A DNA stretch of 63,960 bases, the filler included, from Hausera hauseri (taxonomy: Eukaryota), in the NCBI GenBank assembly GCA_046269625.1. It is 10 parts of 10 records of this genome, joined end to end, with 100 filler letters (N's around TTAATTAATTAA, not from the genome) between each part and the next. Parts side by side here need not be neighbours in the genome. Positions count along the whole stretch, not along the records: positions 25,900 to 31,890 come from JBJURY010157422.1; positions 31,991 to 37,829 come from JBJURY010181195.1; 8 more parts are not named here. The stretch is one strand, 5' to 3'. The notes under the pieces were generated by a model that had not been told where the DNA came from, ran no database searches, and worked only from the letters and a program-made list of their open reading frames with translations. Each line of letters begins with the position of its first letter. Position 1 is the stretch's first letter. Positions 12,001 to 60,078 of the stretch are shown piece by piece. Made by a program: the position numbers and the translations under genes.

Positions 12001-12066
12001 CTTTACGCAATATATCACGTGACACAACGTGAGCAATCACCGGACATCACGTGACGAATCACGTGA
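1..12066. repeat. Satellite array, ~44-bp unit built of four 11-bp subrepeats (ATCACATAATG AATCACGTGAC ACAACGTGACC AATCACATAAC); longer 56/66/78-bp variants
   Basis: TAATGAATCA recurs at 1681 and 1725 (44 bp) and throughout. TCACGTGACA recurs at 11715, 11793 and 11871 (78-bp spacing) near the right end. ORFs here are repeat translations. Confidence 0.97.
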
Positions 12067-12099
12067 TATAATGTATTCCATTTTCCTTGGGAGATTCCG

Positions 12100-13293
12100 T
12101 AGATATTCTAAAACCATGTTTTCGTCTTTTCATTATCTCGTTGAGTTTAGGAAATTTCAATAATAATTTACTCCCTTTATGAGTGTAGTGACTTCGAATA
12201 GAGCAACTGTTTTCGGCTTTTTTAATAAGTCATAATGAAGTAACTGAATATGGGCTAAGTAAGGATAACCTGATATTAGCTGAGCACACTCAACATATGT
12301 ATTGGTAACTAGAAAACAGGCGTCAGTTGTATTTTCCAATGTAAGGATAAAGTCAGGATTTGGCAAACTGAACATTATACGATCAGATTTTACTTGTATA
12401 TAGATGTCTAATTGTTTAAAAGAAATAATCTGGATGCGTTCTGGGGTTTGTCTTATTCCGGCTATTAGATAGGGGATTTTATTATAAACTGAATAATGGA
12501 AACTACTTAACCAAATGTATTTGGGCAAGATGATTGTAATTGCAGTGTAAGAAGTATCTGTCGATTATCTTGTTTCGTGCATGATATTGGAGGTCGGGAG
12601 CTTGTGACATCTAAAGTATATACTTCGTCAATGCATCTTTTTTCAGCACATGATAGGGCATAGCTGACTCGGCTGATTTGAGGTGCTACCACTAAAATTT
12701 CCTTTTCATCGAATATCTTTGCTCCGATTCGCTTATTATCTTCGATCGAAGGGGTACACGGAATCATTGATGCTTTTCTTTCTATTCCGGTTACCGTACA
12801 TCGCCATATACCATTTACGACGCGAAACATAGCAAATATCAATGAATATTCTTGATCAGGTCGTGCAAATATGCAAGTCGATTGGTTATCCTCTCTGTAA
12901 TAATGAATATTTTTATATCCGATCGTTGTGTCAGCATATCACGTGGTTATTTGCATTACTCTACCTTTTGGAATTTTCCTATCCCATTCTATTGGTAAGC
13001 ATTGCCTTTTATAATCGGGTTGTCCTATAAATATCCTCTCCTCTAAAAATGATCTATCAATCCGGGTTTGCTGTCTCTGTTCAAGTGAATGGTCTGTTAG
13101 AGATAACATAACTGTTTTTGGTCTTAACGGTATCATTATTTTGAATGTTCGATCTTCATAGAGGGGTAAATTTTTATTTTTTGAAATATGTATCTGCACT
13201 GAATAGACGGTTTTAGGCATAACTTTACAACAATTCTCCCCATATGTGGACGTAGACGTACATAGCATTTTTTCTTCCCTATAGAGTGTTAAC
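12100..13293 (-). pseudogene. Decayed unknown ORF (three frameshifted pieces), probably a retroelement accessory ORF
   Basis: Three abutting minus-strand ORFs (12939-13268, 12507-12842, 12157-12528). Weak colinear similarity to the 30600-31346 ORFs (TSSRPP/TTLRPP; KIPYL/KLVPYL; YP...ALFEVT/YP...ALIQIT). Confidence 0.4.
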
Positions 13294-13393
13294 NNNNNNN
13301 NNNNNNNNNNNNNNNNNNNNNNNNNNNNNNNNNNNNNTTAATTAATTAANNNNNNNNNNNNNNNNNNNNNNNNNNNNNNNNNNNNNNNNNNNN
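13294..13393. other. Artificial contig spacer (N44-TTAATTAATTAA-N44); also at 19513-19612, 25800-25899, 31891-31990, 37830-37929, 43510-43609, 49353-49452, 54826-54925, 59766-59865
   Basis: Identical 100-nt linker with stops in all six frames, repeated nine times. Confidence 0.99.
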
Positions 13394-13799
13394 AAGGTGC
13401 AACTCGATGTGCTCTATCGATTAGCACTTTATCCCGATCGATTCGATCAATACTGCACTGTGCAGCGATTATTAAGTGAAAAATGCAAAAGTGCCCTTAG
13501 TAACGGTGCCTAACGGCACCGTTGCTACGCACTTTTTGGATCGATACTGCACAGTGTGCTCTATCGATTGACGCATGTGCAAAATTAATTTATCGATTAC
13601 CCCCCCCCCGTCCGGGAAGGGTCTGTGCCCGAATGCCCATTTTCTCCATACTGACATTCTTTTATTGTGGGGGTGAATTACAGCATCCAAAAATGTTAGA
13701 TAACATTTGGACATTTTATTTGTTACGCTTTAAGTATAATCAGTTTATTGTTCGTGATCGACAATGCCAGTGGCTTTTTGTGGGTAATAGAATATCCTA

Positions 13800-14575
13800 A
13801 CTCTTGTTTGTTCATTCAATGACTCGATTTTTTCCGTTTTCGTCCACTTGAGACAAGACAGCCCCCATTGTGTCAAAATTAGCATCCTTCTGAAAATTCG
13901 GGTATGCCAGCACTGGGATGTTTGCCAGTGCGTTTTTCAAGTCTTGGCGCAATGTGTCATGTGCCTCTGTCCACACTAGGTTTTGCTTTCGCCACCACAC
14001 GATTCCAGTGCTTTCGAGTGTGTTGGGTAGTCTTTGGTGAACTTCCGGTAGTATCCGTATAATCCCGGGAAACTGCATACTTGCGTCACACAGGTTGGTT
14101 TTCTAAATTTTTGTATTGCTGCTGTTTTAGGATCGTCTGTCACAATCTCGTTGCTATTTACAATGTTCCCAAGAAACTTTGCTTCCGTCTGCGCCAATTT
14201 GCATTTTGTAGGTTTAACCTGCAATCCACTTTGTTCAATCCGTTTAAAAATACTTTAATCTTCTCCAATGTTCTTTTATCGTCGTTGAAAACACCAGAAT
14301 ATCGTTCAAATAGACCAGAGCTATTTTCCAATTTAGTTCGCCCAACACATGCATCATGATCTTCTGGAAGGTGAAAGAGACTTCCGATATGCCGAACGGC
14401 ATCCTCTTGAAGCAATACTTGCAACTCCTGATAGAAAACGCGGTCTTTAACTGAAAGTCTTTTAGTTCAACTTGGTAGTAGGCGTTACTTAAATCAATGG
14501 ATGTGAAGAACTTGGCTCTATTCCGCGTGTTCAGATTTTCTGAGATATTGGGAATCGGGAGTTTCACTTTCATAG
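13800..14575 (-). pseudogene. Ty3/gypsy pol fragment (RT and start of RNase H), frameshifted
   Basis: FTSIDLSNAYYQV, KTAFS, RMPFGI, VYLNDILVFS (degenerate YLDD), KCKLAQTEAKFLGNIV, PVLAYPNF, MGAVLSQ. Confidence 0.92.
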
Positions 14576-26234: not shown

Positions 26235-26838
26235 TCATATTCTATCATTCATTAAACTTTGTATCCATTTGCTTCTATATTGCATCCAGTTTTTTAAAGT
26301 ATCGCGCAGAATTTTAACTGTTACTTTTATATTTCTTTCAATTTCATCAAGATTTTGTGTCTGATAATTGATAACAATTACTTTATATATCAAGTAGGCC
26401 ACAGCCGTTATGATTTTTTCTCTAGTGATACCAGTCGCAAACATCTTCGCCAATATGTCTTGTTTATGTGGTTCATTAATTCTATCTTCATTAATATTCT
26501 CGTAAAATTGTCTGCTAATTCTTAGTATGCTGTTACGCAACGTCTGGAACAGTTCATCGGGAATAGTTACTTGCATATCAAACGATGCGAATGATGTGTG
26601 TAATTTTGCTAGCAGCGTTCTCAACAATGGATCTATATCTATAGATTCTGGCGTCGTATCTGTTCTTGACAATAACAAACGTTGTACAATTTCTTCGTTC
26701 CTATCTCTTTTACTTTGAATATCACTTATTTCAGTTCCTTTTGGCCTTCCTTTTCTTTTAGTCTCAGTTTGTACCCTGACATCCTGTGTGTCACCTACTG
26801 ATTGTTCTTCTACTTCCGATGATTGTAGTTCTCTTATT
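26235..26838 (-). pseudogene. Bcl-2-like domain (preceded by KRKGRPKG), in frame with the downstream glycoprotein
   Basis: BH3-like FQTLRNSILRISRQF, BH1-like KMFATGITREKIITAVAYL and BH2-like ILRDTLKNWMQYRSKW, in the correct order and spacing. The frame is open from ~26838. Confidence 0.6.
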
Positions 26839-27829
26839 ATCTATTGTTTCCTCCGCTCTTGCGTCAGGGTGTATCTCGGTTATCGTGATTGGGTTATAGT
26901 TTTCGCTTCTACATCCAATTCTCAGTACTTTATCATAACCATATAAAGTTCTTCCATAAAAACTTAACCCGTACACTTTTCCTTATAGAACGGTTCTAAC
27001 CCTTCAATTTTGTCTCGCAATGTTAATATATCATGTCTTATTCATTCCGAGAACTGTCATATCCTGATTTCCTTCTTTTAACGTAATTCTTACTGTTTCA
27101 TTTCTTCCTCTTTCATTTTCAGCTACTTTAGCCAATATTGTCCGTGCTATCTTTCTTATTGGGCTAGTATCGTTGGCGAGTAATAGTAACTGGAATAAAA
27201 TTTCATTTATATTAACTGTAGATACCTTTAATATCTATCAATTTTAATATTGTGCTTGTCGCTTGATTTACGTCAATTATATTTTCGAGATCTATAGCAA
27301 TTACTGCTTGGATAAGGTCATATTCGGCATCTATTTCTACGTCTATATCATGTATTACTTGTTCGATGACGGTTTCATCAAAACCTTTTGTGGACCGAAC
27401 TTCTTTTTCACTTTCCTCTGACATTTGCTTGCCAGACTTACTTTTCTTTCGCCCTCTTCTTTTTTTCTACATCACTTTTCTCCACAGATGTTTGTCTGGA
27501 TTCCACCTCTTCTGTTATCTTTTTATTACCTTTCTTTCTTCCTTGGCGAGGTTTTCCTCCTTTTGGCTTTTCTTCTATTACGTAAATACTATTTTCTTTC
27601 AATCGTTTCTGTTGAGTTTTATAATCCTTTAATTCTATGGCTAGCTGCTTTTTCATACGATGAGCCAATATCTCGTTAACATAGTTTACACTTTCTTTTT
27701 GTCTTTTTTTAGTTTCATGCTCACTATCCTCAGTTTCTTACTCTTTATCGGATGATTCATCCGAAGTAGTTGACGTATAATCCTTCATCTTTTGTTTATT
27801 ACTATTGGACTTTGAAGAATCCCTTTTTC

Positions 27830-28648
27830 GTGACATACATGTTTTTGCTATGTGACCGTATTTATTACATAGTTAAAACACTTCAACCTCCCTTCCTTCT
27901 CTATATTGGGTAATGCCTTTCCATCCTTCGTAGAACTTTTCTTGTAACTGGACTTTTCTCCATCGTTTTTTAATTTAAATTTCTTTTCTACGTCTGATTC
28001 AGCTTCCGTGGCTGACATTTGCGAGGGACTTCGGATTTTGTTATACCGCTGATACTTTTTGGTACTATTATTCTATTTTTTATCTTGATCACTTTCATAA
28101 CTTTTAGACTTGTTCCACCTATATAGCTCTACATCTCGCTCAGCCTTACGTGCATTTCTTATGGCCTCCTGGAACGTAGGTGGATCAGCCTGTAAAATTA
28201 TCGTCCTTAACTTTCCTTCTAATCCGTATTGTAACTGGGCCAACAACGCGTTGCTTCTTATTGTTGCAGTAGGGTATGCCCTTGCGGCTAACCTTTCCCG
28301 TGTACAAAATCTTTGACCGTTTCATCTTTTCGCTACCTTCGTATAAATTCTTCTATCCTACCCTTTTCAGAGGAATCAACCATAAATTTTTGTGGCAGTT
28401 TTTCTTTAACGGTCTTCCAGTCCTTTTTGTCATCTGGCATCTGGACGTAAATCGTTAAGGCTGTTCCTTTTAAATGAAGAGGTAATCTCAATTCGTTGTT
28501 GGTCATTCCATCCGAAACTTCTTTAGTACACCTCGTATTCCATCATGAAATCTTGCACATCTTATCCATTAAACTTTTTTCTAGGTAAAGTATAATCAGC
28601 CTTTGACTGTACATATTGTTCCACCACGTTTGCATTATAATTTGTCAT
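27830..28648 (-). pseudogene. gag: Ty3/gypsy-like gag with CCHC knuckle, decayed
   Basis: PRKKFNG*DVQDFMMEYEVY..FGWNDQQR..LPLHLKGTA, LAQLQYGLEGKLR..ADPPTFQEAIRNAR, degenerate C..CNKYGHIAKTC at ~27840-27885. Confidence 0.8.
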
Positions 28649-28771
28649 GTCGTTTTATTCCGACAAGTTATCTAAATATTCTAAACCATAATGTTGTTCG
28701 TTATGTTTTTGATACCTAATACCTTTCCTTGTCGTAATTTTGTTTCTTCTAAAGGGTAACTTTTAAGATCT

Positions 28772-28789
28772 TCCCGGGTCACGGCACCA
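28772..28789 (-). promoter_or_regulatory. Primer-binding site TGGTGCCGTGACCCGGGA (tRNA-His-like)
   Basis: 18-mer beginning TGG, 2 nt after the LTR end and upstream of gag. TGGTGCCGTGAC matches the tRNA-His 3' end. Confidence 0.85.
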
Positions 28790-28791
28790 GT

Positions 28792-29593
28792 TATTCAATT
28801 TTCACTAATTCACATTGGGAGAGACTTATTAACTGACGTGTGTGGAATTAATGGGGAGAACAATTTTACTTCGATAGTTGTTTTAGCGCGATGATTTTGG
28901 CAAGACAGATGCAAGATCTTTATCTAATCCTAACCTATAGGTAATGTGTGTTGACAGTGGCCTCTGAGGCTGATTTTAGATTATTACTCTCTACGGTTTA
29001 CTTTTTACTAAGTTACTTATGATTAGACAGGATGCTGTCAAGTAGGTTTGACTTGGACGGCGAAGTAGCCAAATTAATTAATAAGTTAGTTAATTATTGA
29101 GGATAACTTACGGATAAAATAAAAGACAATGACTCGTACGCAAAAATAGCAATATGTGATTAATGAAATCAAAGAAAGGAACCAACTCAAAAGAATAAAA
29201 ACGAATTTTACAATATGATAACTGTATACAGAAATAAACGCTTACGTTAACTGTTCACGTATTGATCAGATAAAAACTGTTCTTTGAATTGTCATTTTTA
29301 AACTAGGGTATTTATACCCTATTTTACAATCAATCTATCACCAATAGTAAATAAAAATACACTTCATCAGAGAAAAGAAAACACCAGGTAAAGTAGATAA
29401 TTGCTGTGCATATTTATTTTTTATTTAGATATTCAGAAAATCAATTATGGTAAGTTATTTCACATTTCTTCATAATCAATTACCGTATATTTATTTTAGA
29501 AAGTCGATGAGAAATTCGATTGTAAGTTTTGTTTATTTTTCAACATTTGTTTATTTTAGGAGGAGAAATTCTCAAAGGAATCAATCACGAACA
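28792..29593 (-). mobile_element. LTR (~800 bp) of element 1
   Basis: Minus strand starts TGTTCG and ends TTGAATA (CA decayed) just before the PBS. The terminal block AATTGTTCTCCCCATTAATT...AAGTCTCTCCCA...TTAGTGA..ATTGAA is shared with 33550-33626. Confidence 0.75.
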
Positions 29594-29629
29594 GTTGATG
29601 GGGGTGAGAAGAAAATTGTCTCAAATTTT

Positions 29630-30897
29630 ATTGGCTGGTTGGAAGAGAGCGGAAAACAGTTTTCCAGATGCAGCCTTGTATCTCAGTCCATGAGGTTTGA
29701 AAATTTCGCCATCTATCAGCACTTCCTCTTCGATTTCAATCTTCGGTTTTCTCGGTGATATTTCTTTTTGTCTTTTAAGGGCACTGTCAGAGGCTGTTGT
29801 ATCGTTTATGAATTCGTCATTCCATCGTAACGTATTGTAAATGGCATGGTAGCACTACATCAATGCCATACTGCGGAGTGGCGTACCCCGCATTTCATAA
29901 AATTTCTTCGCAAGTTTTTTATATGTTGCCGTCTCTAATTTATACTTCTGAATCACATCTTCGTGATACAATAGATCACGAACTCCGATGATTCGTCGTA
30001 ATGGACATGTTTTTGTAACATCTCGAGAACTGCGGCTCCGATTACCAATTTGTCAGTTAAGATGGCGGAAACTTTTTGATAGAAGACATTGGCATCCATC
30101 TGGTTATTAATATTTAATTCTGTCAGATCAGTGATGTAAGAATCAAAATTGTTTATCCGTTGTCTGGGGGTTACTATGGTATAGAGTAAGGTGTTTCCAT
30201 GCAAATCGATAATAGAACACTGCAATGGGATAAGTGGATTGTTTTCATAGTAAGCCAGATTAACAGCTACAATCGCGATATCATTATCAGTAATGTAGGC
30301 TAATCGTCTGTATGGTTTTTCAACGTACTTCAAATAATCTGGTTCCACAAGGTCAAAACATTTTCCGGATGGGGGCGTAATCCAAGTGGCTTTTGACTTT
30401 ACTAATTCCACTCCAATCATAATTCTATTGGTTAACATACGAATTTTGAGGACGTTCTTCCTGACAAGATCAAATTGGATTGTCACTCCATGATTCGAGT
30501 CTAAGTTAATCAAGTCTCCTAATTGATTTGTCTTCTTGTCTTTTGTCTTCACTTGGAACCTTCCGATTATATCATAAATATTAATGCTATGGAATTTATC
30601 TGGAAGACTAATTAGATCTTGAAGGAGAAATGATGTCGCCTTTGTTATTTGGATAAGAGCCAACGATCGATTACTGTGTGAGTACCGTTTTAGATTATGG
30701 AGTATTTGTTGCACCATGGGATAATTTAGACTATAAGCATTGTCATTTATCACAATATGATATTGATTAGAAGGACTGGCGTTGATCAGATGATTCTTAG
30801 TATTTTCATAAAGATTCTTACTGCGCTTTACTGATTGTACTTCCATCATTACGAGGATTACTACAAAGAGAAATGTTAAATATTGATATTTTAACAC
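29630..30897 (-). pseudogene. Retroelement 3' accessory ORF with ISG20/REXO4-like DEDDh fold, catalytic residues altered; frameshift near 30010
   Basis: VAVNLAY...CSIIDLHGNTLLYTIVTPRQRINNFDSYITDL...QKVSAILTDKLVIGA aligns with the REXO4/ISG20 pattern (VAIDCEM...SIVN..G...VKP...DYRT..SGI...EVAE.LKGRILVGH). Shifted frame continues CPLRRIIGVRDLLYHEDV. Confidence 0.75.
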
Positions 30898-31392
30898 GAT
30901 TCGACGGTTATCATATTGATTTTGGTAATAGTTGTTATGTCAAATCTATTATATTTCAGGGTAACTGAGTAACGTTCAGTTATCTTAATTTTTCGGATTG
31001 CGTCGATAACAATCTGTTGAAGCCATCGTCAACTTAGATTATGTGTATCCAAGATATTTGATATACGTCGCCTGTCTATTCTAATCCAATTTGTTCTGCG
31101 ACGTTTTCGTAAGTAGGGGACTAATTTTACGGTCGGTATTATACCTATTGCTATTATTATGGGGGTTATTTTACATATTAGTATTATTTCTAACTGTGAA
31201 TGAGTATACGTCGTGTGTGGAGGTCTTAAGGTTGTGGTTAATTCCACGGTAACTCTTTTATGGGATAGTCTTATTTTTACTTTACTTCTGGTCCGTGCTG
31301 TTAAAACTTTTGTAGATATTACTATCGTCGTAAACTTGCAACACAACTGTATATTTGGTGTTCGGGGTCAACGCTGCACAGGGCACAATTAA

Positions 31393-31839
31393 GTCATCAG
31401 GTGTTATAACTCCTTTTGCAATGATTATATCTCGTACCTTACAGATAAACTTTACTTCAAAAAAGATATCAAAATAATCCGTTGTTCACATTGTCAAGCT
31501 TTCGGCCACCGCTCCTCAGACTGTACAAACAAACAATACTGTAGCTTCTGTGGACGTGCCCATCACTCCTTCAATTCTTGTTTCGCCTCAACACCTTTCT
31601 GTATCAATTGCCACGAGGCAAATAAAGAACTCTTAACTACATACAATTGCTCCCACCCTGCCACAGCTTCAAACTGCCCAACCTACAGGCTTGCTCATTC
31701 ACAACGTAGTCAATTGCTCCCAGACGAAAAATACCCACTACCACCAACTTCCTCATTTCCATCACATTTTACCTTTTCTCCCTCACATTCTCCCTCCACT
31801 TCAGAATACTCCCTCGTAGCAGGCACACCCTCCTCATAA
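31393..31839 (+). pseudogene. Non-LTR retrotransposon ORF1 fragment with three zinc knuckles
   Basis: Open frame without ATG: RCSHCQAFGHRSSDC..QYCSFCGRAHHSFNSC..PFCINCHEA...HPATASNCPTY. Confidence 0.85.
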
Positions 31840-31990
31840 CAATTTTATATTTCTATCTAGTTATCTTCCATTTCTCTATTGGTTGCTTACNNNNNNNNNN
31901 NNNNNNNNNNNNNNNNNNNNNNNNNNNNNNNNNNTTAATTAATTAANNNNNNNNNNNNNNNNNNNNNNNNNNNNNNNNNNNNNNNNNNNN

Positions 31991-32785
31991 GAGATAATAA
32001 AGAACGAGAAATTTTATCCAAGTATCCCCGAAGGAAAATGTTTTAATCTCCCGGAACCCGATTATGTTAAATACAAAACCATTCCATTCCGAAGATTAGA
32101 AAAGGTAACCGATAAAGATATGGTCGTAGCAGCCGTCAATCTGGCCTACGACCAATGGAACCAGTTACAGCCTATTGAGGCATCAATCCTAACCTTGATG
32201 GGAGATACCCTATTTTATGGAATTATTACCCCAAGACAGCGTATCAATAATTTCGATACGCATATAACTGGTCTCACAGAAGCAAATATAAATAATCAAA
32301 TCGATCCAGTAGATTTTTATCGGAAGGTAGCAGAAGTGATCACCGATAAAGTAGTGATTGGAGCCGATGTAGTTGAAATGGTAATAAACCATTTCAAATG
32401 TCCAATTCGGCGGATAGCAGGAATACGTGATATCCTTTATCACGAAGAAGTAATCCGCCGATATCAATTGACAACGAACACATTCAAAGAATTAGCACGA
32501 AAATTTTACGATTCGAAAGGTTTCGCATTACGGAGCACCGCTCTAGCTCAATGCTACCAATCAATTCACAAACAAGTAAAATGGTCAGACGAAATCATCA
32601 CACAAAGTTCGGCCTCCGATACGGTGCGAATAGCACCCACAACATCACAGTGTGGACGAAAACGTAAGATACAATTAGACGAAACGATCATACTGGACGA
32701 TGACATTTACGAACCCGACTCTATTCGGTATAAATCTAAGGCAACGGGCAAATATATCCATATACCATTACCCCTCGATCAGTAA
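31991..32785 (+). CDS. Second ISG20/REXO4-like accessory ORF (5'-partial, intact frame from the contig start)
   Basis: GKCFNLPEPDY...VAAVNLAY...IITPRQRINNFDTHITGLTEANINNQ...TDKVVIGA; clear paralogue of 29630-30897. Confidence 0.8.
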   Translation, partial: EIIKNEKFYPSIPEGKCFNLPEPDYVKYKTIPFRRLEKVTDKDMVVAAVNLAYDQWNQLQPIEASILTLMGDTLFYGIITPRQRINNFDTHITGLTEANINNQIDPVDFYRKVAEVITDKVVIGADVVEMVINHFKCPIRRIAGIRDILYHEEVIRRYQLTTNTFKELARKFYDSKGFALRSTALAQCYQSIHKQVKWSDEIITQSSASDTVRIAPTTSQCGRKRKIQLDETIILDDDIYEPDSIRYKSKATGKYIHIPLPLDQ

Positions 32786-32821
32786 TAAATTGCGGACAAT
32801 TTTCTTCGAACCCCCTTCGAA

Positions 32822-33626
32822 TGTGCGGACAATTAAACACATGTTGCAAATAAATGCAACTAAATTGAAACATATGTTGAAAAAGTGGATATAATCGTAT
32901 AATGATCTTTTGATATTTCTTTGGAAATTAAACACATGTTTCTACTCGTATAATGACTTTTTGATATTTCTTTGGAATCTTGACTTTATTATATGATCAT
33001 GATCATTAATATGCTATTGAACATATTTTTTCGAGTATGTACGGACAATTTTTTATTATGTATAGTGAATGTGGATTACTATATAAGTAGTAACATTTAG
33101 AGGTAAAAACTCATAAGAAATCTTTGGTGTTCTTATTCACCGATTTTGATCGTCACGTTTTATTACGCATCATGTCTTCACGTAAGTCGTTTATGTTTTC
33201 TGGTGTGTGTGAATTGTAAAAGTTGATTATAATAGCTTATAGTGTGATAAAATTTTTGGTTATTTTGGCATTTAATTACAATTATTGATTTGTATATTTT
33301 CGTTTATTGATCATCTTTTAAGTAAAGAAATTAAGACAAGTAAAGATTTAAGTAATTGTGGTTATATCCTCGACCAGGTAAAAGCGACCTGACGAGGGCC
33401 AGTCTAATCTTAAATAAAGAATAAGAGATTAAACCTTAGTGAGTAAATAACAGCCAAACTTGCGACTTCTTGAAACACATTACCTAGTATATAAGTAGGT
33501 AAGGTGACTTGGTACCTCCTTGAAATATATCAATCATTATATTAACGTGAAATTGTTCTCCCCATTAATTAGAAGTCCTAAGAATTAAAAGTCTCTCCCA
33601 AAGATCTAGTTAGTGAGGATTGAACA
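32822..33626 (+). mobile_element. 3' LTR (~805 bp) of element 2
   Basis: TGT...ACA termini, same length and same terminal block as 28792-29593. TATATAA ~33080 and AATAAA ~33412. No PBS follows. Confidence 0.75.
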
Positions 33627-34059
33627 TGTATGCTACGTGTATTTTTTAAAAACTGGTTACATATAGTATAAATTCAATAAAATATATTGAAAAATGAAAG
33701 TACGATTGTTTATGTAATGATTGAATACTTACTTAAGTAAATTAAGGTATATAATACATAATAAACAGTAATCAAAATTATTAGTACACGAAATTATGAT
33801 ATTATTAGTATTAGTGGAAAAACTATTTTAATCAGATTAGTATAAATAAATGAGTAAAACCACTTATTGAAACCACAACAAACAGTCATATGCTGCTACA
33901 CATTACCTCAAAAATTTACTATTTTTTATCGGTGGAACATTTGGGTTTACGTAATACTAAGAGTTGTTCAAAAAATTTAGAAAATCTGATTTTAAACAAA
34001 TTTCCATATAGTATTTTTACGCTATATAGAAACTTGATTTTCATATAAGAATGGTTTCT

Positions 34060-35777
34060 CTAATTGGCCAAAAGTTTGGAACCTCCTTCGATTTTTTCAA
34101 ATAATTTGCATTAAAATGTTATAAAAAATAAACTACCCAACAGTACGTCATAATTTTAATCGTGGATAAGACTGGATCAAGTATGTTATAAAAAGAGTTC
34201 TTATCCATATTGTTTAGTATTTGTAATACTGGTCCTTGCTGGCAAGCACTGCCTCGATAGGCTGGAGAATTGAGAATACTAGTGCCTCTCAGTATTGCCG
34301 AGTGATGGCAGTGGCCGACACTTTCTTTATTGCCTCCTACAGGTTTTTCCGATGTAGGACCCTCTTCTGAGACCTTGCGCATCATATGAGTCCACAGGTT
34401 CTCAATTGTATTGAGGTCAGGGCTTCATCCAGGCCAAGGACCCAGTACCTCAATTACTTTGGTGTGCAACCACTGTCATACGACAGCAGTACGGTGGCAA
34501 GGAGCCCCATCGTGCTGAAAAATGGTGCAACTGAGAATGTTTATATGAGGTTGAAGCTTGTCCTTCAGATAAACTTGACCATTTATGGTCGTTTTGGCTT
34601 TCATGAACCATATGTCACCTCGGCCAGAAGCACTAAAGCATGCCCAGACCATCGTTTATGGAGCTTTCTTGACAGTTGGAACTACAAATCTTATTGTTGT
34701 ACCTCTGGTTAGGAGGTCGCCTGACTCGAGTGGTTGTAGGATGGAACTGGGAGAAGGTTGCCTCGTCCGAAAAGATGATCTTATTCTAGTCGTCCTTTAT
34801 CCAGGCTCTGTACTTTTTACAGAAGGCAAGATGGTCCTTGATATTTTTCATGCTCAGCTTGGCCTTCATTGCAGGTCGACAGGATCTGAGGCCAAAATCC
34901 ATCATCAGGCGTCTTTTTATGGTCCTTGCATTTGATGGGGCGGGAATATTTGCTGCTATCCTACTCGAGGACCACGTGGGATGAGCCACAGAAAACCGAC
35001 GGATAGTCCTGTCCGTGGTTTGTGACGTCACTCGAGGCCTGTCAACCCTTTTTTCTCAAATCCAGTGGTCTTGAATCCTTCGCCCGTGTTATCCTCTTGA
35101 CTACTGCTGACCTGCAGACCCATAATATTGAAGCTATCCTTGTGTTTGAATCATTCTGCTCATGTAGGACCATTACCTGTGCTTTTATCGACTAAAATTT
35201 CTCTTCCGCGAACCATTCTGCAGTAAGATAGATAATAGGTTTAATAATTGCAAGTCAAATAATGATTTATTCTTACTCAAAAACATTTAAAGTACATTTA
35301 GCTTCATTAATAAATGACAAATGACAAGTTTATTTTAAATTGTTAAAGTTTTGAGCAAAAAGAAAACTTACCTTTTAAAGTCTTTATGCTGCAACACTTT
35401 AAAAATCTAAAACCAGAAAACTCAGACAAATAAAAATTATTTCACTCGTTAAAACAACTCCAAACAGACAAAGAATGAGGCTGGATGACGCTATTACGGT
35501 CGCTATAGCTGTACTTTGACCACATGAGTTGGAAACGTTCAATGAGCGTAATATGCTCCGATGCTTATTTCACCTGTCATCACGGTTTAACGCACGAGGG
35601 CGCTAATATCTTAAGCAAATTCCGCGAAAAGGCCATAGTATCATCCACGCAGTATCACCGCACAATGTCACATAACAGAATTTATCTCGGTCGCATGACA
35701 ATTGAATTTGCTACACAGCTTAATACCCAGTGTTTACTCTAGGCTCGACGACCGTTTCAAACTCATGGCCAATACTG
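34060..35777 (-). mobile_element. Decayed Tc1-like (DD34E) transposon; transposase ~35216-34250
   Basis: RPRVTSQTTDRTIRR, IIFSDEATF, MVWACFS, FQHDGAPCH, WPG*SPDLNTIENLW. TIRs ATTGGCCAAAAGTTTGGAAC and GTTTCAAACTCATGGCCAATACTG+TA. Confidence 0.92.
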
Positions 35778-36314
35778 TATATTGCTTGAGTTGTTTTAAA
35801 AATTGAAAACAAAAACATATCAACCTATTTATTTCTGAAGATTACACAAGTCATACATGCCCAAAATAAAAATGCTTTTAACTTAACATTCTTTCCAATT
35901 ACATAAAATAATTTTAACAGTGTGGTAGGTTCAATTTCGTAATAAATAGGGATCGGATAAAGGCAAAATGCCTATAAACGCCTTTTGGGGGTAAAATTTG
36001 TCAAAATGCCTTTTTGCTTTTTCGGCAATTGTTTAATTAAAACAAGGCCTTTTTGTCAAAGTAAATTAGGATAAATGACAAAATGTATAAAATTTTAGTC
36101 TTTCAACTACATTATTTCTCGGATTCAATGGAACGACGAAAAATAAAGAGAATTAGAAATAATTTGTTTTAAAATTACATTTTCTCTTAAATTTAAAAAG
36201 CTGCAATTCAGTGCCAAAATCAAAAGAATCTAAATGTTAAAAGTTGTAGCATTACACCGAAGCCTTTCGTGGGACTAATGTATTCTATAATGTATTATTA
36301 CTAGTAATCAACCC

Positions 36315-36365
36315 TGTGAGGATATAATTGAGAACAGAAGTTCTGTTCTCAATTATATCCTCACA
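36315..36365. repeat. Perfect 51-bp palindrome (25-bp arms, 1-nt loop) flanked by an AACCC direct repeat
   Basis: AACCC|TGTGAGGATATAATTGAGAACAGAA G TTCTGTTCTCAATTATATCCTCACA|AACCC. Confidence 0.95.
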
Positions 36366-36979
36366 AACCCCATTGTTCTTTAAATCATAAGAACTGGGAC
36401 CTACCGCACTGTTACAATTATTTTATGTCATTGGAAAGAATGTTAAATTAAATGCATTTTTATATTGGACATGACCTGTGTAATCTTCAGAAATAAATAG
36501 GATGATATATTACTTATGTTTTAAATTTTTCAAACAACTCAAGCAATAAACGTTTAGAATAGAAAAACCATTTTAGTGTCAAAAACAAATTTCTATATAG
36601 CGTAAATATACCATACGGAAATTTCTTTAATCAGATTTTCCATTTTTTTAAATACTCTGTTAATAATTTGCTTCGACTGTGCATTGGGTGTCCAGTCTAT
36701 GTATGAGAAAATTTTTTTTCGAGCTACACTATCACAAGGAGTATTAAAATTTGTGTAATTTTACACAGATTACGGAAAAGGTAAAAAAACTAGAAATGTG
36801 TCATCTTGAGGGCTCTACCGCATTTTGAAGTTTTGTAGACTTTACGTTTTTACAGACCTAAACCGTATGCCTAAAATAATACAAAAATCAAGTTTAAAAG
36901 GTATTTCATTATTGAAATTAATGAAACAAAGCACAAGAAAACAAAATAAACAAAATAGAGTTTATAATCAATGACAAAA

Positions 36980-43609: not shown

Positions 43610-46600
43610 ACTAAGTCCGAATATGTATGTGTCCGGAAATGCGAGAGTCCAAAATTAGTTTCGACGCAACTCCTTCTGCAGTATGCGAAAATGTGGGTGT
43701 CTGGAACTGGGTCAGTCCAAAACTTGTTTCGACGTAACTAGTTTTGCAGTATCCGAAAATGTAGGTGTCCGGAACTGAGTCAGTCCAAATTTGTTTCGAC
43801 GCAGCTCGTTCCGCCGGATCCAAAAATGTAGGTGTCCGGAACTGAGTCAGTCCAAATTTGTTTCGATGCAACTCCTTCCGCAGTATTCGAAAATTTCGGT
43901 GTAGGGAACTGGGACAGGCCAAAATTTTTTTGTACCCAACTCATTCTGCTGAATCCACATATGCATTCGTCCGGAATTGTGTCAGTCCAAAATTATTTTC
44001 AGCCCAGCGCACTCCGCTAAGTCCGAATATGTAGTTGTCTGGAAATGGGAGAGTCCAAAATTTGTTTCGACGCAACTCGTTCCGCAGTATCCGAAAACGT
44101 AGGTGTCCGGAAGAGGGTCGTTCCAAAATTTATTGCGACCCAACTCAATCCGTTAAATCTGAATATGCAGGTGTCCGGAACTGTGTCAGTCCAAAATTTG
44201 TTTCGACGCACCTCTTTCCGCCGGATCCGAAAATGTAGGGGTCCGGAACTTAGTCAGTCCAAAATTTGTTTCGACACATCTCTTTCCGCAGTGTACAAAA
44301 ATGAACGTGTCCGTAACGGGGTCAGTCTTTAATTTTTTTCGGGCCAAGTAATTGCGCTTTGTACGAATTTGCAGGTGTCCGGATCTTAGTCAGTCCAAAA
44401 TTTGTTTCGACGCAACTCGTTCCGCCGAATCCGAAAATGTAGGGGTCCGGAACTGAGTCAGTCCAAAATTTGTTTCGACGCAACTCGTTCCGCCGGATCC
44501 GAAAATGTAGGGGTCCGGATCTGGGACTGTCCAAAATTTGTTTCGACGCAACTCGTTCCTATGTATCCAAATATGTAGGTTTCCGGAACTGTGTCAATCC
44601 GAAATTTCTTTTGACCCAAGTAATTCCGCTATATATGACTATGCAGGTGTCCGGAACTGGGTCATTACGAACTTTGTTTCGATGCAACTCCTTCTGCAGA
44701 ATGCGAAACTGTGGCTGTCCGGAAGGGGTCAGTCCAAATTTTTTTGGACCCAACTCATTCTGCTGAATCCACATATGCATGCGTCCGGAACTGGTTTAGT
44801 CCAAAATTCATTTCCGCCCAATTCATTCCACTAAGTCCGAATATGTATGTGTCCGGAAATGCGAGAGTCCAAAATTAGTTTCGACGCAACTCCTTCTGCA
44901 GTATGCAAAAATGTGGGTGTCCGGAACTGGGTCAGTCCAAAATTTTTTGCACCCAACTCATTCTGCTGAATCCACATATGCGTTCGTCCGGAACTGGGTC
45001 AGTCCCAAATTTTTTTCCGCCCAACGCATTCCGCTAAGTCCAAATATGTAGGTGTGCGGAAATGGGAGTGTCCACATTTTGTTTCGGCGCAACTCCTTCC
45101 GCTGTATCCGAAAATGTAGGTGTCCGGAACTGGATCATTCCAAAATTTGTTTCGACGCAACTCGTTCCGCAGTATCCGAAAATGTAGGTGTTTGGAACAG
45201 GGTCAGTACAAAATTTTTTTCGACCCAACTCATTCCGCTAATTCCGAATATGCAGGTGTACGGAACTGGGTCAGTACAAAATTTGTTTTGACGCAACTCC
45301 TTCCGCAGTATCCGAAAATGTGGGTGTCCGGAACTGGGTCAGTCCAAATTTGTTTTCGGCCCAACTCATTGCGATGAATCCGAATATGCATGTGCGCGGA
45401 ACTGGGTCATTCCAAAATTTTTTTCAACCCAACACATTTCGCTTAGTCCAAATATGTAGGTGTCCGAATCTGGGTCAGTCTAAAATTTGTTTTGACCCAC
45501 CTCTTTCCGCAGTGTCCTGAAATGTAGGTGTCCGGAACTGGGTCTGTCCAAAATGTCTTTAGACGCAAGTCGTTCCGCCCGATCCGGAAATATAGGTGTT
45601 CGGAACTGGGTCAGTCCAAATTTTTTGCGGGCCAAGTCATTGCGCTTTTTAAGAATATGCAGGTGTAAGGATCTGGGTCAGTCTAAAATTTGTTTCGACG
45701 CACCTCTTTTCGCAGTGTCCAAAGATGTAGGTGTCCGGAACTCGGTCATTCCGAAATTTGTTTCGGCGCAACTCCTTCCGCAGTATTCGAAAATATCGGT
45801 GTCCGGAACTGGGACAGGCCAAAATTTTTTTGTACCCAACTCATTCTGCTGAATCCACGTATGCATTCTTCGGAACTGTGTCAGTCTAAAATTCTTTTCC
45901 GCCGAACGCACTCCGCTAAGTCCGAAAATGTAGGTGTCCGGAACAGGGTCATTCCAAAATTTATTGCGACACAACTCATTCCGCTACATCTGAATATGCA
46001 GGTGTCCGGAACTGTGTCATTCCAAAATTTGTTTCGACGTAACTCGTTCCAGTGTATCCGACAATGTAGGTGTCCCGAACTGGGTCAGTCCGAATTTCTT
46101 TTCGGACCAAGTAACTGCGCTTTGTCCGAATATGCAGGTGTACGGATCTGGGTCTGTCCAAAATTTTTTTCGACCCAACTCATTCCGCTATATCTGAATA
46201 TGCAGGTGTCCGGAACTGGATCATTACGAAATTTGTTTCGATGCACTCCTTCTGCAGTATGCGAAAATGTAGGTGTCCGGAAATGGGTCAATCCAAATCT
46301 TGTTTCGACGCAACTCGCTCCGTTGAATCCGAATATGTAGGCGTACGGAACTGGGTCAGTACAAAATTTTTTTCGGGCCAAGAAATTGCGCTTTTGTAGG
46401 AATATGCAGGTGTACGGATCTGGGTCTGTCCAAAATTTTTTCGACGCAACTCATTCCGCCGTATCCGAAAATGTAGTTGTACGGAACTGGATCAGTCCAA
46501 AATTTTTTTCGACCCAACACATTCTGCTATATCTGAGTATGCAGGTGTCCGAACTGGGTCATTCCGAAATTTGTTTCGACGCAACTCCTTCCGCAGTATC

Positions 46601-49352
46601 CGAAAATGTAGGAGTCTGGAACTGGGTCAGTCCGAATTTTTTTGGACCCAACTCATTCTGCTGAATCCACAGATGCATGTGTCCGGCACGGTGTCAGTGC
46701 AAGTTTTTTTCAATCCAACTCATTCCGCTTAGTCCGAATATGTAGGTGTACGGATATGGATCAGTACAAAATTCGTTTCGACGCAACTCCTTCCGCAGTA
46801 TGCGAAAATGTGGGTGTCCGTAACGGAGTCAGTCCAAAATTTGTTTCGACGCAACTTGTTCCGCCGTATCCGAAAATGTAGGTGTCCGGAACTGGATCAG
46901 TCCAAATTTTTTCGACCCAACTCATTCCGCAAAATCTGAATATGCAGGTGTACGGAACTGGGTCAGTACAAAATTTTTTTCAACCAAACTAATTCCGCTA
47001 GGTCCGAATATGTAGGTGTACGTAACTGGGTCAGTCCAAAATTTTTTTCGAAGCAATTCGTTCGGCAATGTCCGAAAATGTGGGTGTTCGGAACTGGGTC
47101 AATCCAAATTTCCTTTCGGCCCAACTCATTGCGCTGAGTCCGAATATGTAGGTGTCCGGAACTGGATCTGTCCAGAATATTTTTCGGCCTAAGTAATTGC
47201 ACTGAGTTCGAATATGCATGTGTCCGGAAATGGGTCATTCCAAAATTTGTTTTGACGCAACTCGTTCCGCATTGTCCGAAAATGTGGGTGTCCGGAACTG
47301 AGTCAGTCCAAAATTTTTTTGGACCCAACTCATTCTGCTGAATCCACATATGCATGTGTCCGGAACTGGGTCAGTCCAAAATTTGTTTCGATGCAACTCG
47401 TTCCGCCGTATCCGAAAATGTAGGTGTCCGGAACTGGGTAATTCGAAAATTTTTTTCGATCCAACTCGCTTCGCTAATTAGGAATATGTAGGTGTACGGA
47501 ACTGGGTCAGTCCAAAATTTTTTTGGCCCAACTCATTCTGCTCAATCCACATTTGCATGTGTCCGGAACTGGGTCAGTCCAAAATTTCTTTCGACGCAAC
47601 ACGTTCCGCAGTATCCGAAAATGTGGGTGTCCGGAACTGGGTCAGTCCAAAATTTTTTTCGACGCAATTCGTTCCGCAGTGTCCGAAAATGTAGGTGTCC
47701 GGAACTGGGTCATTCCGAAATTTGTTTCGACGCAACTCGTTCCGCTGTATCCAAAAATGTTGGTGTCCGAAACTGGGTCAGTCCAAAATTCCTTCCGCCC
47801 ACCTCATTCAGCTAAGTCCGAATATGCAGGTGTCCGGAACTGGGTCAGTCCAAAATTTTTTTGGACCCAACTCATTCTGCTGAATCCACATATGCATGTG
47901 TCCGGAACTGGGTCACTCCAAAACTTGTTTCGACGCAACTCGTTCCGCCGTATCCGAAAATGTAGGTGTCCGGAAATGTATCAGTCCAAAATTATTTAAA
48001 CCCAACTCATTCCGCTAAATCTGAATATGCAGGTGTCCGGAACTGGGTCATTCAAAAAATTTTTTCGATCCAACTCGCTTCGCTAATTCCGAATATGCAG
48101 GTGTCCGGAACTGGGTCAGTCCAAAATTTTTTTGGACCCAACTCAATCTGCTCAATCCACATTTGCACGTGTCCGGAACTGGGTCACTCCGAAATTTGTA
48201 TCGACGCAACTCCTTCCGCAGTATAAGAAAATGTGGGTGTCCGGATCTGGGTCAGTCCGAAATTTTTTGGACCCAAATCACTCCGCTGTGTTCGAGTATG
48301 CTGGTGTTCAGAGCTGGGTCAGTCCAACATTTTTTCCGACCCAACACGTTCCGCTAAGTCCAACTATGTAGGTGTCCGGAACTGGGACAGTCCAAAATTT
48401 GTTTTGACGCAACACGTTCCGCAGTATCCGAAAATGTGGGTGTCCGGAACTGGGTCAGTCCAAAATTTTTCTCGACGCAATTTGTTCCGCAGTGTCCGAA
48501 AATCTAGGTGTCCGGAACTGGGTCAGTCCAACATTTTTTCCGACCCAGCCCGTTCCGCTAAGTCCCACTATGTAGGTGTCCGGAACTGGGACAGTCCAAA
48601 ATTTGTTTCGACGCCACTCGTTCCGTTGTATCTGAAAATGTGGGTGTCCGGAACTGGGTCAATCCAAATTTCTTTTCGGCCCAACTCATTGCGCTGAGTC
48701 CGAATATGCATATGTCAGGAAATGGGTAAGTCCAAAATTCTTTTGGACCCAACTCATTCTGCTGAATCCACACATGCATGCGTCCGGAACTGGGTCAGTC
48801 CAAAATTTCTTTCGACGCAACTCGTTCCGCTGTATTCGAATATTTAGGTATCCGGAATTTTATCAGTCCAAAATTTTTTTCGGGCCATCTAATTGCGCTT
48901 TGTAAGAATATGCAGGTGTACAGATCTGAGTCTGTCCAAAATTTGTTTCGAAGCAACTCAATCCGCCGTATCCGAAAATGTAGGTGTCCGGAACTGTATC
49001 AGTACAAAATTTTTTTCGACCCAACTCATTGCGCTATATCTGAATATGCACGACTCCCGAACTGGGTCACTCCGAAATTTGTATCGACGCAACTCCTTCC
49101 GCAGTATGCGAAAATGTGGGTGTCCGGATCTGGGTCAGTCCGAAATATTTTGGACCCAAATCACTCCGCTGTGTTTGAGTATGCAGGTGTTCAGAACTGG
49201 GTCAGTCCAACATTTTTTCCGACCCAACAGGTTCCCCTAAGTCCAACTATGTAGGTGTCCGGAACTAGGACAGTACAAAATTTGTTTTGACGCAACACGT
49301 TCCGCAGTATCCGAAAATGTGGGTGTCCGGAACTGGGTCAGTCCAAAATTTT
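43610..49352. repeat. Satellite array, 68-bp unit (AAAATGTAGGTGTCCGGAACTGGGTCAGTCCAAAATTTGTTTCGACGCAACTCGTTCCGCAGTATCCG)
   Basis: AAAATGTAGG at 45111 and 45179; fills the whole contig. ORFs are repeat translations. Confidence 0.97.
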
Positions 49353-49807
49353 NNNNNNNNNNNNNNNNNNNNNNNNNNNNNNNNNNNNNNNNNNNNTTAA
49401 TTAATTAANNNNNNNNNNNNNNNNNNNNNNNNNNNNNNNNNNNNNNNNNNNNTATATACAATTTATACATTTATGCACCCCTTACACCTCTTCCGTTGGG
49501 GTTTGACCGGATTCCCCAACTAGTCATTCTGGTTCCAACAATTGGTGTTTTAATTCTAAACATTTGGATAAAAATAAAGATTCAGATGAAGTTATTGATC
49601 ATGAAGGCGATAGAATTTAAATGCTTACAAAAAGTTCCTTGACGTGAAAGTAATCGAATTGATCGCAAAAAGGAAAGCCGTGTTCACTGATGGAATTAAA
49701 CTTGTCTCGATAATTGGGATCGGTCGGGGCAGAACAATGTTTTTAAAGGCTCACTCAACAGCTACAAGACAAGAGGCAAAATATGTGATGATACCACACT
49801 ACCCAGA

Positions 49808-51130
49808 TTGTTGTTTATCACCATCGTTTTCCATCCACTTTTTGTTAATAAATTAATACATACCGCACATATAACACAATGTATCGACACAATACAATTA
49901 TATGACCTCATTCACAAAGCCACCGCCTTCAATGACTTCTATTTAACTGACAATGGATTCATTTTAACTGACCTCCCACACATCATGTCCTCACAATACT
50001 CCCTCTGTATACACATCCACCCTAGAATCCGCGGAGGTATGATTTCTTCACCAACCAGTGACATCACAGATAAGGTGACCACAAAACCCAAATCCATTGT
50101 TTATTATCCAAAATCAAACCATCTAACTCCTTCAACCGATATTAGTTTTTCTCACAAAACCCCTACAATTACACCTTTACATTGCTCTGAATACTTTACA
50201 GACAATGAAAACTCTAGTAAGATTTGGCTCCACTTTTATCAACTTTGGCTACAATCCAACGGTATTATCGACTCGTTAACCAAAGCCAATAATCTACTCT
50301 ACCTTCTACCAAACTCCATGAAGACCTCAATCTATAACTTACTTTACATCTTTCAACACCCTGACCCTTATACGCAATTGTTCAATGCTGTATTAAAACT
50401 AACAGAACCACCAATTGACTCGATAATACAACGATTCTTTAATGAAAACGCGATGGGCATGCAAAAACCTAGTGATTTTTATGCACCTTTTTGGCCCACT
50501 TACGTACCCTTAGCGTTACAAAGGAACACAATCCGGATCTACTTTGCCACTATTTTCTTAATGCTATACCAATTCTAATTAGGGCTTTACTTACTGTCGT
50601 TGAGAATTCTACAGCTTTAGATAAACTAGCCGAATTGGCCAATAAAGCACATGAAGTTTTACAATTACAGTCACAGCCAATCGTATCGGCCGCAATCACA
50701 ACCGGCGACAATCAACTACATACACCAATAGAACAACAAATGAGCAAATTACGCGCCGAAAATGCAGCACTACAATATACAATCAATAATATTAATGATA
50801 AGCTGAATGACCTTTCCTTGCAGGGACGGAGTTCTCTTGTTTTCATCGCACGCTTTCGGCCTCAAAAAATCGATCACCGTACCCGGCGCGATCGTTTGTA
50901 TGCTATTATCATAACAAATTTAATGACAAAGCTAATAAATTCTGTTTAGGGTGTAGATATTACTTTTCGAATCTACACTCAGATAACATTGTTTGCATCT
51001 ATCATGCAAAATTTGGACCTAATGCTCGGAAATGTATTTCAGGCTGTAACTATAAAATCAACTCTAACTACGCCAATGACAAACGTTCTACTTTCTGTAA
51101 TAATAAACGCCCAAACTCACCAATCCAAAA
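49808..51130 (+). pseudogene. gag: CsRn1/Kabuki-type gag with an N-terminal ubiquitin-like segment and two CHCC knuckles
   Basis: ...IHIHPRIRGG|M...; PDPYTQL...QKPSDF; LDKLAELANKAHE; CYYHNKFNDKANKFCLGC and CIYHAKFGPNARKCISGC. Confidence 0.78.
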
Positions 51131-51239
51131 AAACTGATTTCGCCGCCAGTACTCACGGCAGAGTCTGGCAAAGGCAACTTACCTAATCCTTCTTACCGAC
51201 TCACTTTTTTGCAGTCTTTACACTAAAAGCTGCAATCTC

Positions 51240-54200: not shown

Positions 54201-54300
54201 CAGAACGCTATTATCTTTAAAGACGGAAAAAAATTTGTAGTACATAATACTAATGTAAAATCTACCTTTTTCGTAGATGATACTTCTCCAACTGAAACGT
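51240..54300 (+). pseudogene. pol: Ty3/gypsy pol (protease, RT, RNase H, integrase), frameshifted
   Basis: YFLIDTGAAISLLP; SKSPWSSHLHVV; KTAVTTPFGLYEYLYMPF; YIDD; LATDASTTAVGAVLHQ; HSLHHHG...CVACQ; VHIDLVGPLP; DRFSRWPE; QGPQFES. Confidence 0.95.
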
Positions 54301-55149
54301 CAACCTCGTTTTCTACCCCTATAACCACCACTATCCCCACTTCAATTTACACGTCTACCTTACCACATACTCCTGTACTTCTTTCTGTTCCTACATTTTC
54401 ACCTCCTAATTCCGTTCCTGTCCCTGTTTCCACATTTTCCTCTCCTTCTTTTCTTATTCCTACTTATACTCCAAACCCTATTCTTATTCCTTCACCTATT
54501 TCTACTTCTCCCTTCCACTTATCACTTCCCGAAACTTTCACAGATAACAGGAATCATCCAACTTCAGTCACTCCTTTTCCCTCTTCTGTTTTACCTCCGC
54601 CAGACACAACACTCAACCATGCAAATTCTGATATTTTCTTTTCGCAACCATTCCAGCAGGCAGACACAAAAGTAAAGACACATCGCAAGTCAGTGACATT
54701 AAGTACCTATAGTAGACAACTAAATAACGAAGGATTACAACGTCTTGTACGCACAAAAACTTATAAGACAAGTTACACCGTTTTTTCTCTGGATTTTCTT
54801 TTCAATTTTATCTTTACAGTTTTCANNNNNNNNNNNNNNNNNNNNNNNNNNNNNNNNNNNNNNNNNNNNTTAATTAATTAANNNNNNNNNNNNNNNNNNN
54901 NNNNNNNNNNNNNNNNNNNNNNNNNCGGTCGCGAAATTTCTCACGTACCTGATGATGATAGTTTAAAGTGTCGAGTGAATACTGAATTGCAAGGATACAA
55001 AGAAAAGGCCAATATCAAAAGCCCTATTTGATAAGTGTAGCTGTAGCACATTTTAATTATCAATAAATTTTGTTTGACTGTTCTTCTTCTCTCATTAACC
55101 CAATTAACGAGTATAAATATACGTGTGATTTTAATATGGGTATAAGAAT

Positions 55150-55487
55150 AATGATAATGAATGATGTAAAGATTAGCTTAACAGACGAAAATGCCTTTGT
55201 ACCAAGACGTGTTACAGCAAACAGTGCAGGCTACGATGTGTTTTTCAATGTCAATACGACAATTACAGACAGCACAATTAAATACATAACAATTGGGATT
55301 CGATCGGAGATTCCACCCGGTTACTACGGCCAACTTTTTTAAACAAACGTACTGTCAAAATTCGGACTGACGGTTGTGGGTGGCGGCCGTGCCACTGATT
55401 CAGACTTTCGTGGTAAAAATAAGGTGTTGCTGGTAAGCCAATCCGGGGAACTGTATGCTTTTACGAAAGGCAGTGCATTCGCACAAT
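55150..55487 (+). pseudogene. dut: dUTPase (copy 2), frameshifted and C-terminally deleted
   Basis: AFVPRRVTANSAGYDVFF, GIRSEIPPGYYGQ, DSDFRGKNKVLL, KGSAFAQ. Confidence 0.85.
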
Positions 55488-55961: not shown

Positions 55962-56289
55962 ATATATGTACGTATTTCCTTCTTTCTGTAAATAATATTC
56001 ATGCCATGTTTAGCAATATTGGTCAGTTGAATAATTAAAAACCATAAATACGGGTAAGTTATAATAATAATAATCATGGACTATAATGGAAATTGTACAC
56101 ATTTATTACGAATGACGTCTTCAATAACGGAACAAAGCAGTGTCATCGGCTTCAATGTCGTGGAGGTAATTTGTATCATTGTGATGTGAGACAATACTCA
56201 CAAAGTAAAATGCCTAGGGTTTACAATGAAAACAAACCTTTGATATAAATATAAATTCAATTTCGTTTCAAGTTTGTCTTGTTTAAAAA

Positions 56290-56790: not shown

Positions 56791-56977
56791 TAAATTTTAT
56801 TGATTGTGTGTTCTTCATATTGTTTCTCGTCACATTAAGTTAAATAGATAAATTAAATAATAATAAAACAAAAGGCAAAAACAACGAATAATATACATTA
56901 TTTATACAAAACAAACAGATCACGATGAATTGTCACAGTAATTTGATCTGTCTGCACCGAATTCTTGCGTGCCTGTT

Positions 56978-60004: not shown

Positions 60005-60078
60005 ATCTTCTCCTTTCCGTGCGACGTCGCACATTATACTAAGAGCCGTTTGGCTCTGGTCAAAAAGTTGCTTTTGTT

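Follow-up and report, generated by a model that had tools for sequence, protein, structure and literature searches.

The window analysed here is a stretch of 63,960 nucleotides of Hausera hauseri DNA (GCA_046269625.1) in which ten contigs are joined by N-spacers. Two of these, contig 4 (25900-31890, element on the minus strand) and contig 5 (31991-37829, element on the plus strand), each carry a copy of an accessory open reading frame (ORF) of a long terminal repeat (LTR) retrotransposon. The C-terminal half of the encoded protein resembles DEDDh 3'-5' exonucleases but lacks their canonical catalytic motifs D-x-E and H-x4-D. Taken as a whole, the ORF may tentatively be read as an accessory LTR gene of a giant element resembling the Burro gypsy elements of planarians, encoding a non-cutting protein that binds RNA 3' ends.

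The accessory ORF is a real gene, present in multiple copies and under purifying selection. Its two copies align with 74 identities in 134 positions (55%, E 3e-51) and share every motif by which an earlier note on this DNA had recognized two diverged paralogues on separate contigs: PRQRINNFD (32231-32257 on the plus strand and 30168-30142 on the minus strand), VNLAY (32135-32149 in contig 5 and 30264-30250 in contig 4), NINNQ and TDK.VIGA. The contig-5 copy has lost its 5' end at the start of the contig, and the contig-4 copy is no longer intact, with an out-of-frame Met at 30914, a frameshift near 30010 and a stop codon at 29857; an open frame of 264 codons has a chance of about 5e-8 given the local stop frequency. 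Over 239 codon pairs between the copies, the proportion of synonymous differences (pS) is 0.74 and that of nonsynonymous differences (pN) is 0.30, a pN/pS of 0.41 (bootstrap 0.34-0.49), and identity by codon position is 63/77/39%. Synonymous sites near saturation together with a conserved protein argue for purifying selection, in agreement with the selective retention proposed in the earlier note. Among the rows listed, the differences between run contigs that fall within the ORF are all synonymous (4/4; 674 more rows extend across the whole stretch). Summed depth in run X1 is 2200-3500 over the contig-5 ORF versus about 8 just beyond the LTR end, a contrast indicative of a multi-copy family, summed depth being no copy number. 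The runs listed as carrying the sequence include no RNA run, from which nothing follows about expression.

The gene is longer than the earlier note had stated: it reaches about 30914 in contig 4, and its database relative P0001 (ENA, one 1.6-kb contig), 53-60% identical to both copies and carrying the same quoted motifs, has 447 amino acids. P0001 represents the whole gene, with a hydrophobic N-terminus (residues ~13-28), a domain of ~170 amino acids, the nuclease-like domain (~218-390) and a basic tail; the first two of these parts had been overlooked. The hydrophobic segment comprises 11-15 residues (Kyte-Doolittle 1.8-2.1 as a 19-mer and 3.05-3.21 over 11 residues) and is preceded by basic residues in both sequences that reach that far (2/2), with a confident helix at 2-28 in the AlphaFold model. 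A basic cluster resembling a nuclear localization signal (NLS) is found in the tail of all three sequences; N-glycosylation sequons are few, and none is common to the copies. P0001 was the sole relative among 341 and 3250 candidates, in a homologue search that covered proteins of up to 783 amino acids. No homologue was found among 78 short candidates or in IMG/VR or phage records, and 0 of the 59 and 143 pattern matches in JGI metagenomes were confirmed as homologues. The features of the two contigs are collected in Table 1.

Table 1. Features of the accessory gene and its element on contigs 4 and 5 (window coordinates)
Feature	Coordinates	Strand	Description
Accessory ORF, contig-5 copy	31991..32785	+	Open; DEDDh-like domain ~32078-32596, then basic tail
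Accessory ORF, contig-4 copy	29621..30914	-	Hydrophobic N-terminus, ~170-aa N-terminal domain, DEDDh-like domain, basic tail
Non-coding stretch, stop codon to LTR end, contig 5	32786..33626	+	No purine run >7; then unrelated flank without primer-binding site
Homologous non-coding stretch to LTR end, contig 4	28792..29620	-	No purine run >7
Primer-binding-site-like sequence	28774..28789	-	Starts TGG, two bases past LTR end
Broken gag	27800..28650	-	One frame matches Retrotrans_gag (E 0.05); by eye, a CCHC-like knuckle around 27870
BCL2-like open stretch downstream of gag	26235..26840	-	Pfam Bcl-2 E 0.0032 and 0.0012, under curated cut-off
Element sequence upstream of gene	30890..31388	-	Frame with transmembrane-like segment and basic cluster, one stop
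LINE ORF1-like zinc-knuckle fragment	31393..31839	+	Depth near 1, loose ends at 31839

The nuclease-like domain is very likely to have the DEDDh exonuclease fold, a rating given because tests that are individually weak, none of them significant alone, agree in sequence and model. In the ESM Atlas, RNase_T clusters rank first (0.92, 171 shared features, recognition 3057), with RNase_T on 59% of members and the ten best family matches (10/10) in one clan. A profile of the three sequences (A2) found ISG20L2 as its sole PDB match at E<=10 (E 0.044), and with profile A3 the same protein was the better of two matches (E 0.025), the alignment being gap-free over 67-68 residues from strand 2 to motif II. 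The four top-ranked Foldseek matches are DEDDh domains aligned over nearly their full length (179-215 columns, E 0.013-0.019), and the 40 rows listed comprise 27 of DEDD type, 12 CorA and 1 unclear. The domain model has three strands first and helices after; the first, poor AlphaFold model also retrieved Orn, RNase T and REXO2, and a viral fold library gave weak rows only, several of them DEDDh.

Several results weigh against this assignment. No nuclease family was matched in Pfam, NCBIfam or PHROG, and for RNase_T (PF00929), the profile comparison put forward in the earlier note, neither copy nor P0001 reaches the Pfam gathering threshold, while hhalign against a profile of 34 bacterial PF00929 domains gave E 0.056, a score matched by 2 of 40 shuffles. 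The two AlphaFold models are of poor quality (pLDDT 33 and 41), all Foldseek matches have E-values above 0.001, and with the low-confidence model VIA-align returned no DEDD chain (best Z 3.5). A single-sequence match of the N-terminal domain to SIR2 (E 0.011), missing from the profile search, is probably due to chance, so a single E-value of this size means little. It is nevertheless improbable that the domain has some other fold and that its resemblances arose by chance, as might be argued from the fact that no single test passes its significance threshold and that shuffled proteins score 0.9 or more in the Atlas in 4-10 of 100 cases: independent methods point to one superfamily, and an alignment forced against the bacterial profile stays colinear over its whole length. 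Of the pseudonuclease claimed earlier, the DEDDh-type fold is backed by concordant weak tests, but not by Pfam or by good models. The ISG20/REXO4 subfamily assignment is unproven, with ISG20L2 best by profile but DnaQ and ERI1 placed first by Foldseek.

The N-terminal domain (~170 amino acids) also has RNase_T clusters as its nearest Atlas neighbours (0.82). A tandem duplication of DEDD domains, for which this value is the sole argument, is of low probability: the N-half and C-half align by hhalign no better than shuffles (56/150 as high), and between the N-half and the bacterial profile there is no match (31/40 shuffles as high).

Given the fold, catalysis is likely to have been lost, judging from the residues at the expected positions. 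The earlier note named retention of D-x-E by most family members as evidence against its reading; in all three sequences the domain lacks this motif (0/3 keep it, read independently of register), and VNLAY replaces it in both copies, as that note had described. Of the two other motifs then reported as absent, H-x4-D is indeed missing from P0001, from the contig-5 copy and from the readable pieces of the contig-4 copy, but the Gly of motif II is kept, followed at +5 by an acid (D/E/E) in 3/3 sequences; the ISG20L2 Asp is at +6, a position held by M/T in the accessory-gene sequences. The missing three acids and His make canonical two-metal catalysis unlikely, and the acid at +5, one residue off register, may be one ligand that remains, which counts against a complete loss. 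The Cys, His-Glu (YHE) and Cys are conserved in all copies covering them. By eye, the alignment contains no shared C-x2-H, the conserved residues of this kind being two Cys and one His-Glu.

These residues raise the question of whether the protein might still be a nuclease with a rebuilt site, composed of the motif-II acid, the Asn of VNLAY, the Asp of RD, the His-Glu of YHE and the two Cys. The presence of the acid at +5 from the motif-II Gly in 3/3 sequences and the conservation of the Cys, His-Glu and Cys would suit such a site, and RNase activity has reportedly been observed for DEDD-less Maelstrom of the fly. Yet in no register does strand 1 or the last helix offer a counterpart to three of the four acids or to the His, conservation of many residues is expected by chance at 55% identity, and Bombyx Maelstrom and PML-PXL, which lack DEDD, are inactive (PMC4408791, PMC13659232; the papers cited by PMC number are drawn on in part), so that a rebuilt nuclease is distinctly improbable.

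The position of the gene differs from that given in the earlier note, which put it at the 3' end of two LTR elements. The contig-4 ORF precedes, on one strand, the LTR end, the primer-binding-site-like sequence (which we take to be of tRNA-His type) and gag. The non-coding stretches of ~840 nt in contigs 4 and 5 have 64% global identity (score 478 versus <=279 in 100 shuffles), with a middle third that in local alignment is no better than shuffles (40/200 as high), and homology between the copies starts anew exactly at the stop codon and, a second time, at the LTR end. In run X2, one contig continues past the contig-5 LTR end with sequence whose first letters resemble the contig-4 primer-binding site, which supports the LTR end. 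There is no polypurine tract between the stop codon and the LTR end in either copy (2/2). Because the same ~840 nt lie before a primer-binding site and gag in one copy and before flank in the other, without a purine tract, they appear to belong to one long LTR, and the gene seems reasonably likely to lie within it, in the U3 part. On this long-LTR reading, the simplest assignment is that contig 4 holds the 5' LTR and contig 5 the 3' LTR or a solo LTR. Burro elements have internal regions of up to 25 kb and totals of >30 kb (PMC6431247), leaving room for LTRs of kilobases.

Alternatively, the gene may be an ordinary internal ORF3 or ORF4 before a short 3' LTR, contig 4 being a tandem sharing an LTR or a permuted assembly; this is possible, if somewhat doubtful. 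Extra ORFs are usually located between pol and the 3' LTR (PMC5408684), and the sequence upstream of the gene in contig 4 looks coding. The LTR start and pol fall outside both contigs, and much of the contig-4 ORF has a run X1 depth of 30-320 versus 2000-16000 for gag and BCL2, without the twofold excess expected of an LTR gene; both points count against an LTR location, the second being tempered by the 80% likeness filter, which favours conserved parts. An internal ORF, however, does not sit well with two copies that both lack a polypurine tract, or with homology that picks up at just those two places; it requires an extra event, and contig 4 is no collapsed consensus but an old copy that is damaged and contains a nested insertion. 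If the gene does lie in the LTR, it would persist in solo LTRs too.

The 41 nt directly past the stop codon (29588-29628; 32787-32827) are 78% alike, above the sequence that follows, and are a possible cis signal.

From domain order only, the element is probably kin to the Burro giants. Its broken, putative gag with a knuckle-like motif and its BCL2-like stretch follow the order Retrotrans_gag, CCHC knuckle, BCL2-like of the planarian Burro/GYPSM1 elements, which have accessory ORFs and env homology and polyproteins with apoptosis and ubiquitin-related domains, and are proposed to be proviruses (PMC6431247). Great abundance and large size are further points in common. The Pfam Bcl-2 match of E 0.0012 spans model positions 10-97 of 100, and the best PDB match of the stretch is BOK (6ckv, E 0.084), with BH1- and BH2-like segments. 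No Pfam match to MATH or SUMO-like domains was obtained in the broken frames between gag and BCL2, and an element without MATH or SUMO before BCL2 may be a compact Burro variant. The likeness to Burro is one of layout by description, not of sequence, and env, BIR, ankyrin, dUTPase and pol would lie beyond the contig end (25900). The passages of PMC6431247 drawn on list for Burro no exonuclease-like ORF and no gene within an LTR, and those of PMC11410931 and PMC13238120 hold no further facts on Burro genes. In planarians, PIWI silences Burro elements (PMC8532177), and, according to a report cited in PMC13465017, one Burro element helps host stem cells.

The BCL2/BOK-like stretch (26235-26840, minus strand) has a summed depth near 15000 in run X1. 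The frame upstream of the accessory gene has no Pfam or PHROG match and could represent either a small gene of its own or an extension of the accessory protein at its N-terminus; within contig 4, the patch 30900-31099 has a depth of 4900 versus 30-260 beside it. The LINE ORF1-like fragment is probably a secondary insertion in the element.

In the mechanism proposed, a Burro-like giant gypsy element would have captured a DEDDh 3'-5' exonuclease fold that then lost its metal ligands, and the resulting non-cutting protein would bind RNA 3' ends, thereby shielding the RNA of the element or jamming host RNA-decay and small-RNA nucleases. Given the fold, the lost catalysis, the position and the kinship, the case for such an RNA-binding shield or decoy, made by analogy, is about evenly balanced. 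In the alignment with ISG20L2, the invariant PRQRINNF(D) segment falls on the DYRT..SGI loop, which presumably lines the 3'-end pocket. Two poor signs for RNA binding must be set against this function, namely that the Arg of the DYRT loop is Asp in the accessory gene and that the domain is not basic (pI 7.1-7.7); a third objection is that the hydrophobic N-terminus could send the domain out of the cytosol. Members of the fold without DEDD, such as Maelstrom and PML-PXL, bind nucleic acid without cutting it (PMC4408791, PMC13659232). Confidence in the reading as a whole is capped because the gene family is sampled by three sequences only, itself a point against it, the fold statistics are weak and no full-length element is available.

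The hydrophobic N-terminus suggests that the protein could instead be secreted or membrane-anchored, with its domains outside the cytosol, acting on the particle surface or between cells, for example as a sponge for double-stranded or small RNA against spreading silencing. The 11-15 hydrophobic residues after basic residues in 2/2 sequences, the env homology and proposed proviral nature of Burro (PMC6431247) and the second transmembrane-like frame just upstream of the gene agree with this, but the NLS-like cluster in all three tails, the few and unshared sequons and the ambiguous charges past the hydrophobic segment in the contig-4 copy make it unlikely. A more elaborate version, in which a secreted or membrane-bound protein of two tandem dead DEDD folds, encoded in each LTR, solo LTRs included, would sequester silencing RNA and act from hundreds of genomic copies as a suppressor of piRNA or systemic RNA interference, is very improbable. 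The neutral charge of the domain could also be explained by a protein-binding decoy or scaffold, a dead fold that does not bind RNA itself but poisons a host nuclease or its partners by pairing with them. Its invariant surface-type segments (PRQRINNFD, NINNQ, LAY) would suit this role, as would the other host-meddling domains of Burro (BCL2, BIR; PMC6431247) and the host function reported for one Burro element (as cited in PMC13465017); the described DEDD-less homologues, however, bind nucleic acid (PMC4408791, PMC13659232), and this explanation is quite unlikely.

Exonuclease genes of LTR elements in rotifers, with active sites intact, are already in print. Among bdelloid rotifer retroelements, whose DEDDy exonuclease ORFs the earlier note mentioned, Juno and Vesta have an intact RNase D-like DEDDy ORF3 with invariant DEED, downstream of pol and without a transmembrane segment (PMC5408684). 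They resemble the element described here in being LTR retrotransposons with a DEDD-superfamily accessory gene near the LTR, for which a role at RNA 3' ends or in silencing was proposed, whereas the accessory gene here, without the catalytic set, leans towards DEDDh, includes a hydrophobic N-terminus and a further domain, and is probably in the LTR. ISG20, ISG20L2 and REXO4 (PF00929; PDB 7yw5) provide the best profile match, from which the gene differs in having neither D-x-E nor H-x4-D and in falling under the Pfam threshold. Maelstrom, Exuperantia and PML-PXL have, like it, a DEDD fold without the acids that is selectively kept (PMC4408791, PMC13659232), but they are host genes and this is an element gene, and neither the ECHC zinc site of Maelstrom nor the SAM-like domain of Exuperantia and PXL is evident in it. 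The arenavirus nucleoprotein exonuclease, a weak Atlas neighbour (0.87, rank 21), is a captured DEDDh domain used against host RNA sensing, but unlike the accessory gene product it is catalytically active, with DEDD and ECHC (PMC7968707).

In the literature searched, neither a DEDDh pseudonuclease of an LTR element nor such a gene in Burro is mentioned; the main Burro papers (Grohme 2018, Lee 2026) and the Repbase entries fall outside its coverage and may note one. A selectively kept DEDDh-type pseudonuclease on a Burro-like giant, probably in its LTR, may be new. If the proposal is true, a decoy that binds RNA and is encoded by the element itself would offer a concrete candidate mechanism by which giant elements counter small-RNA defence.

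Other parts of the window contain mobile elements of different kinds. Two decayed Polinton/Maverick-like pieces (19613-25799 and 54926-59765), 75% identical over 2.9 kb, encode protein-primed PolB, endonuclease VII and dUTPase. A decayed small gypsy-type pol (49453-54825, plus strand) with an integrase core and a zinc-binding domain is unrelated to the Burro-like element by blastn. Tc1/mariner fragments (HTH_Tnp_Tc3_2, DDE_3) and nested inverted repeats occupy 33960-36658, including at 36315-36365 a perfect 25-nt hairpin with a summed depth of ~34600 in X1. The region 59866-63960 (minus strand) is an intact siphophage tail module (tape measure, Dit, minor tail); with phage DNA beside animal-type repeats, the assembly is probably metagenomic. 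No Rfam match was obtained within 28600-33800, and no tRNA gene was found in the window. Satellite arrays within 1-12066 and 43616-49352 consist of a 44-nt unit (22-nt sub-period, CACGTG-rich) in ~250 copies and a 68-nt unit in ~85 copies, and contig 2 has diverged palindromic repeats at 16027-16398 and 18611-18938.

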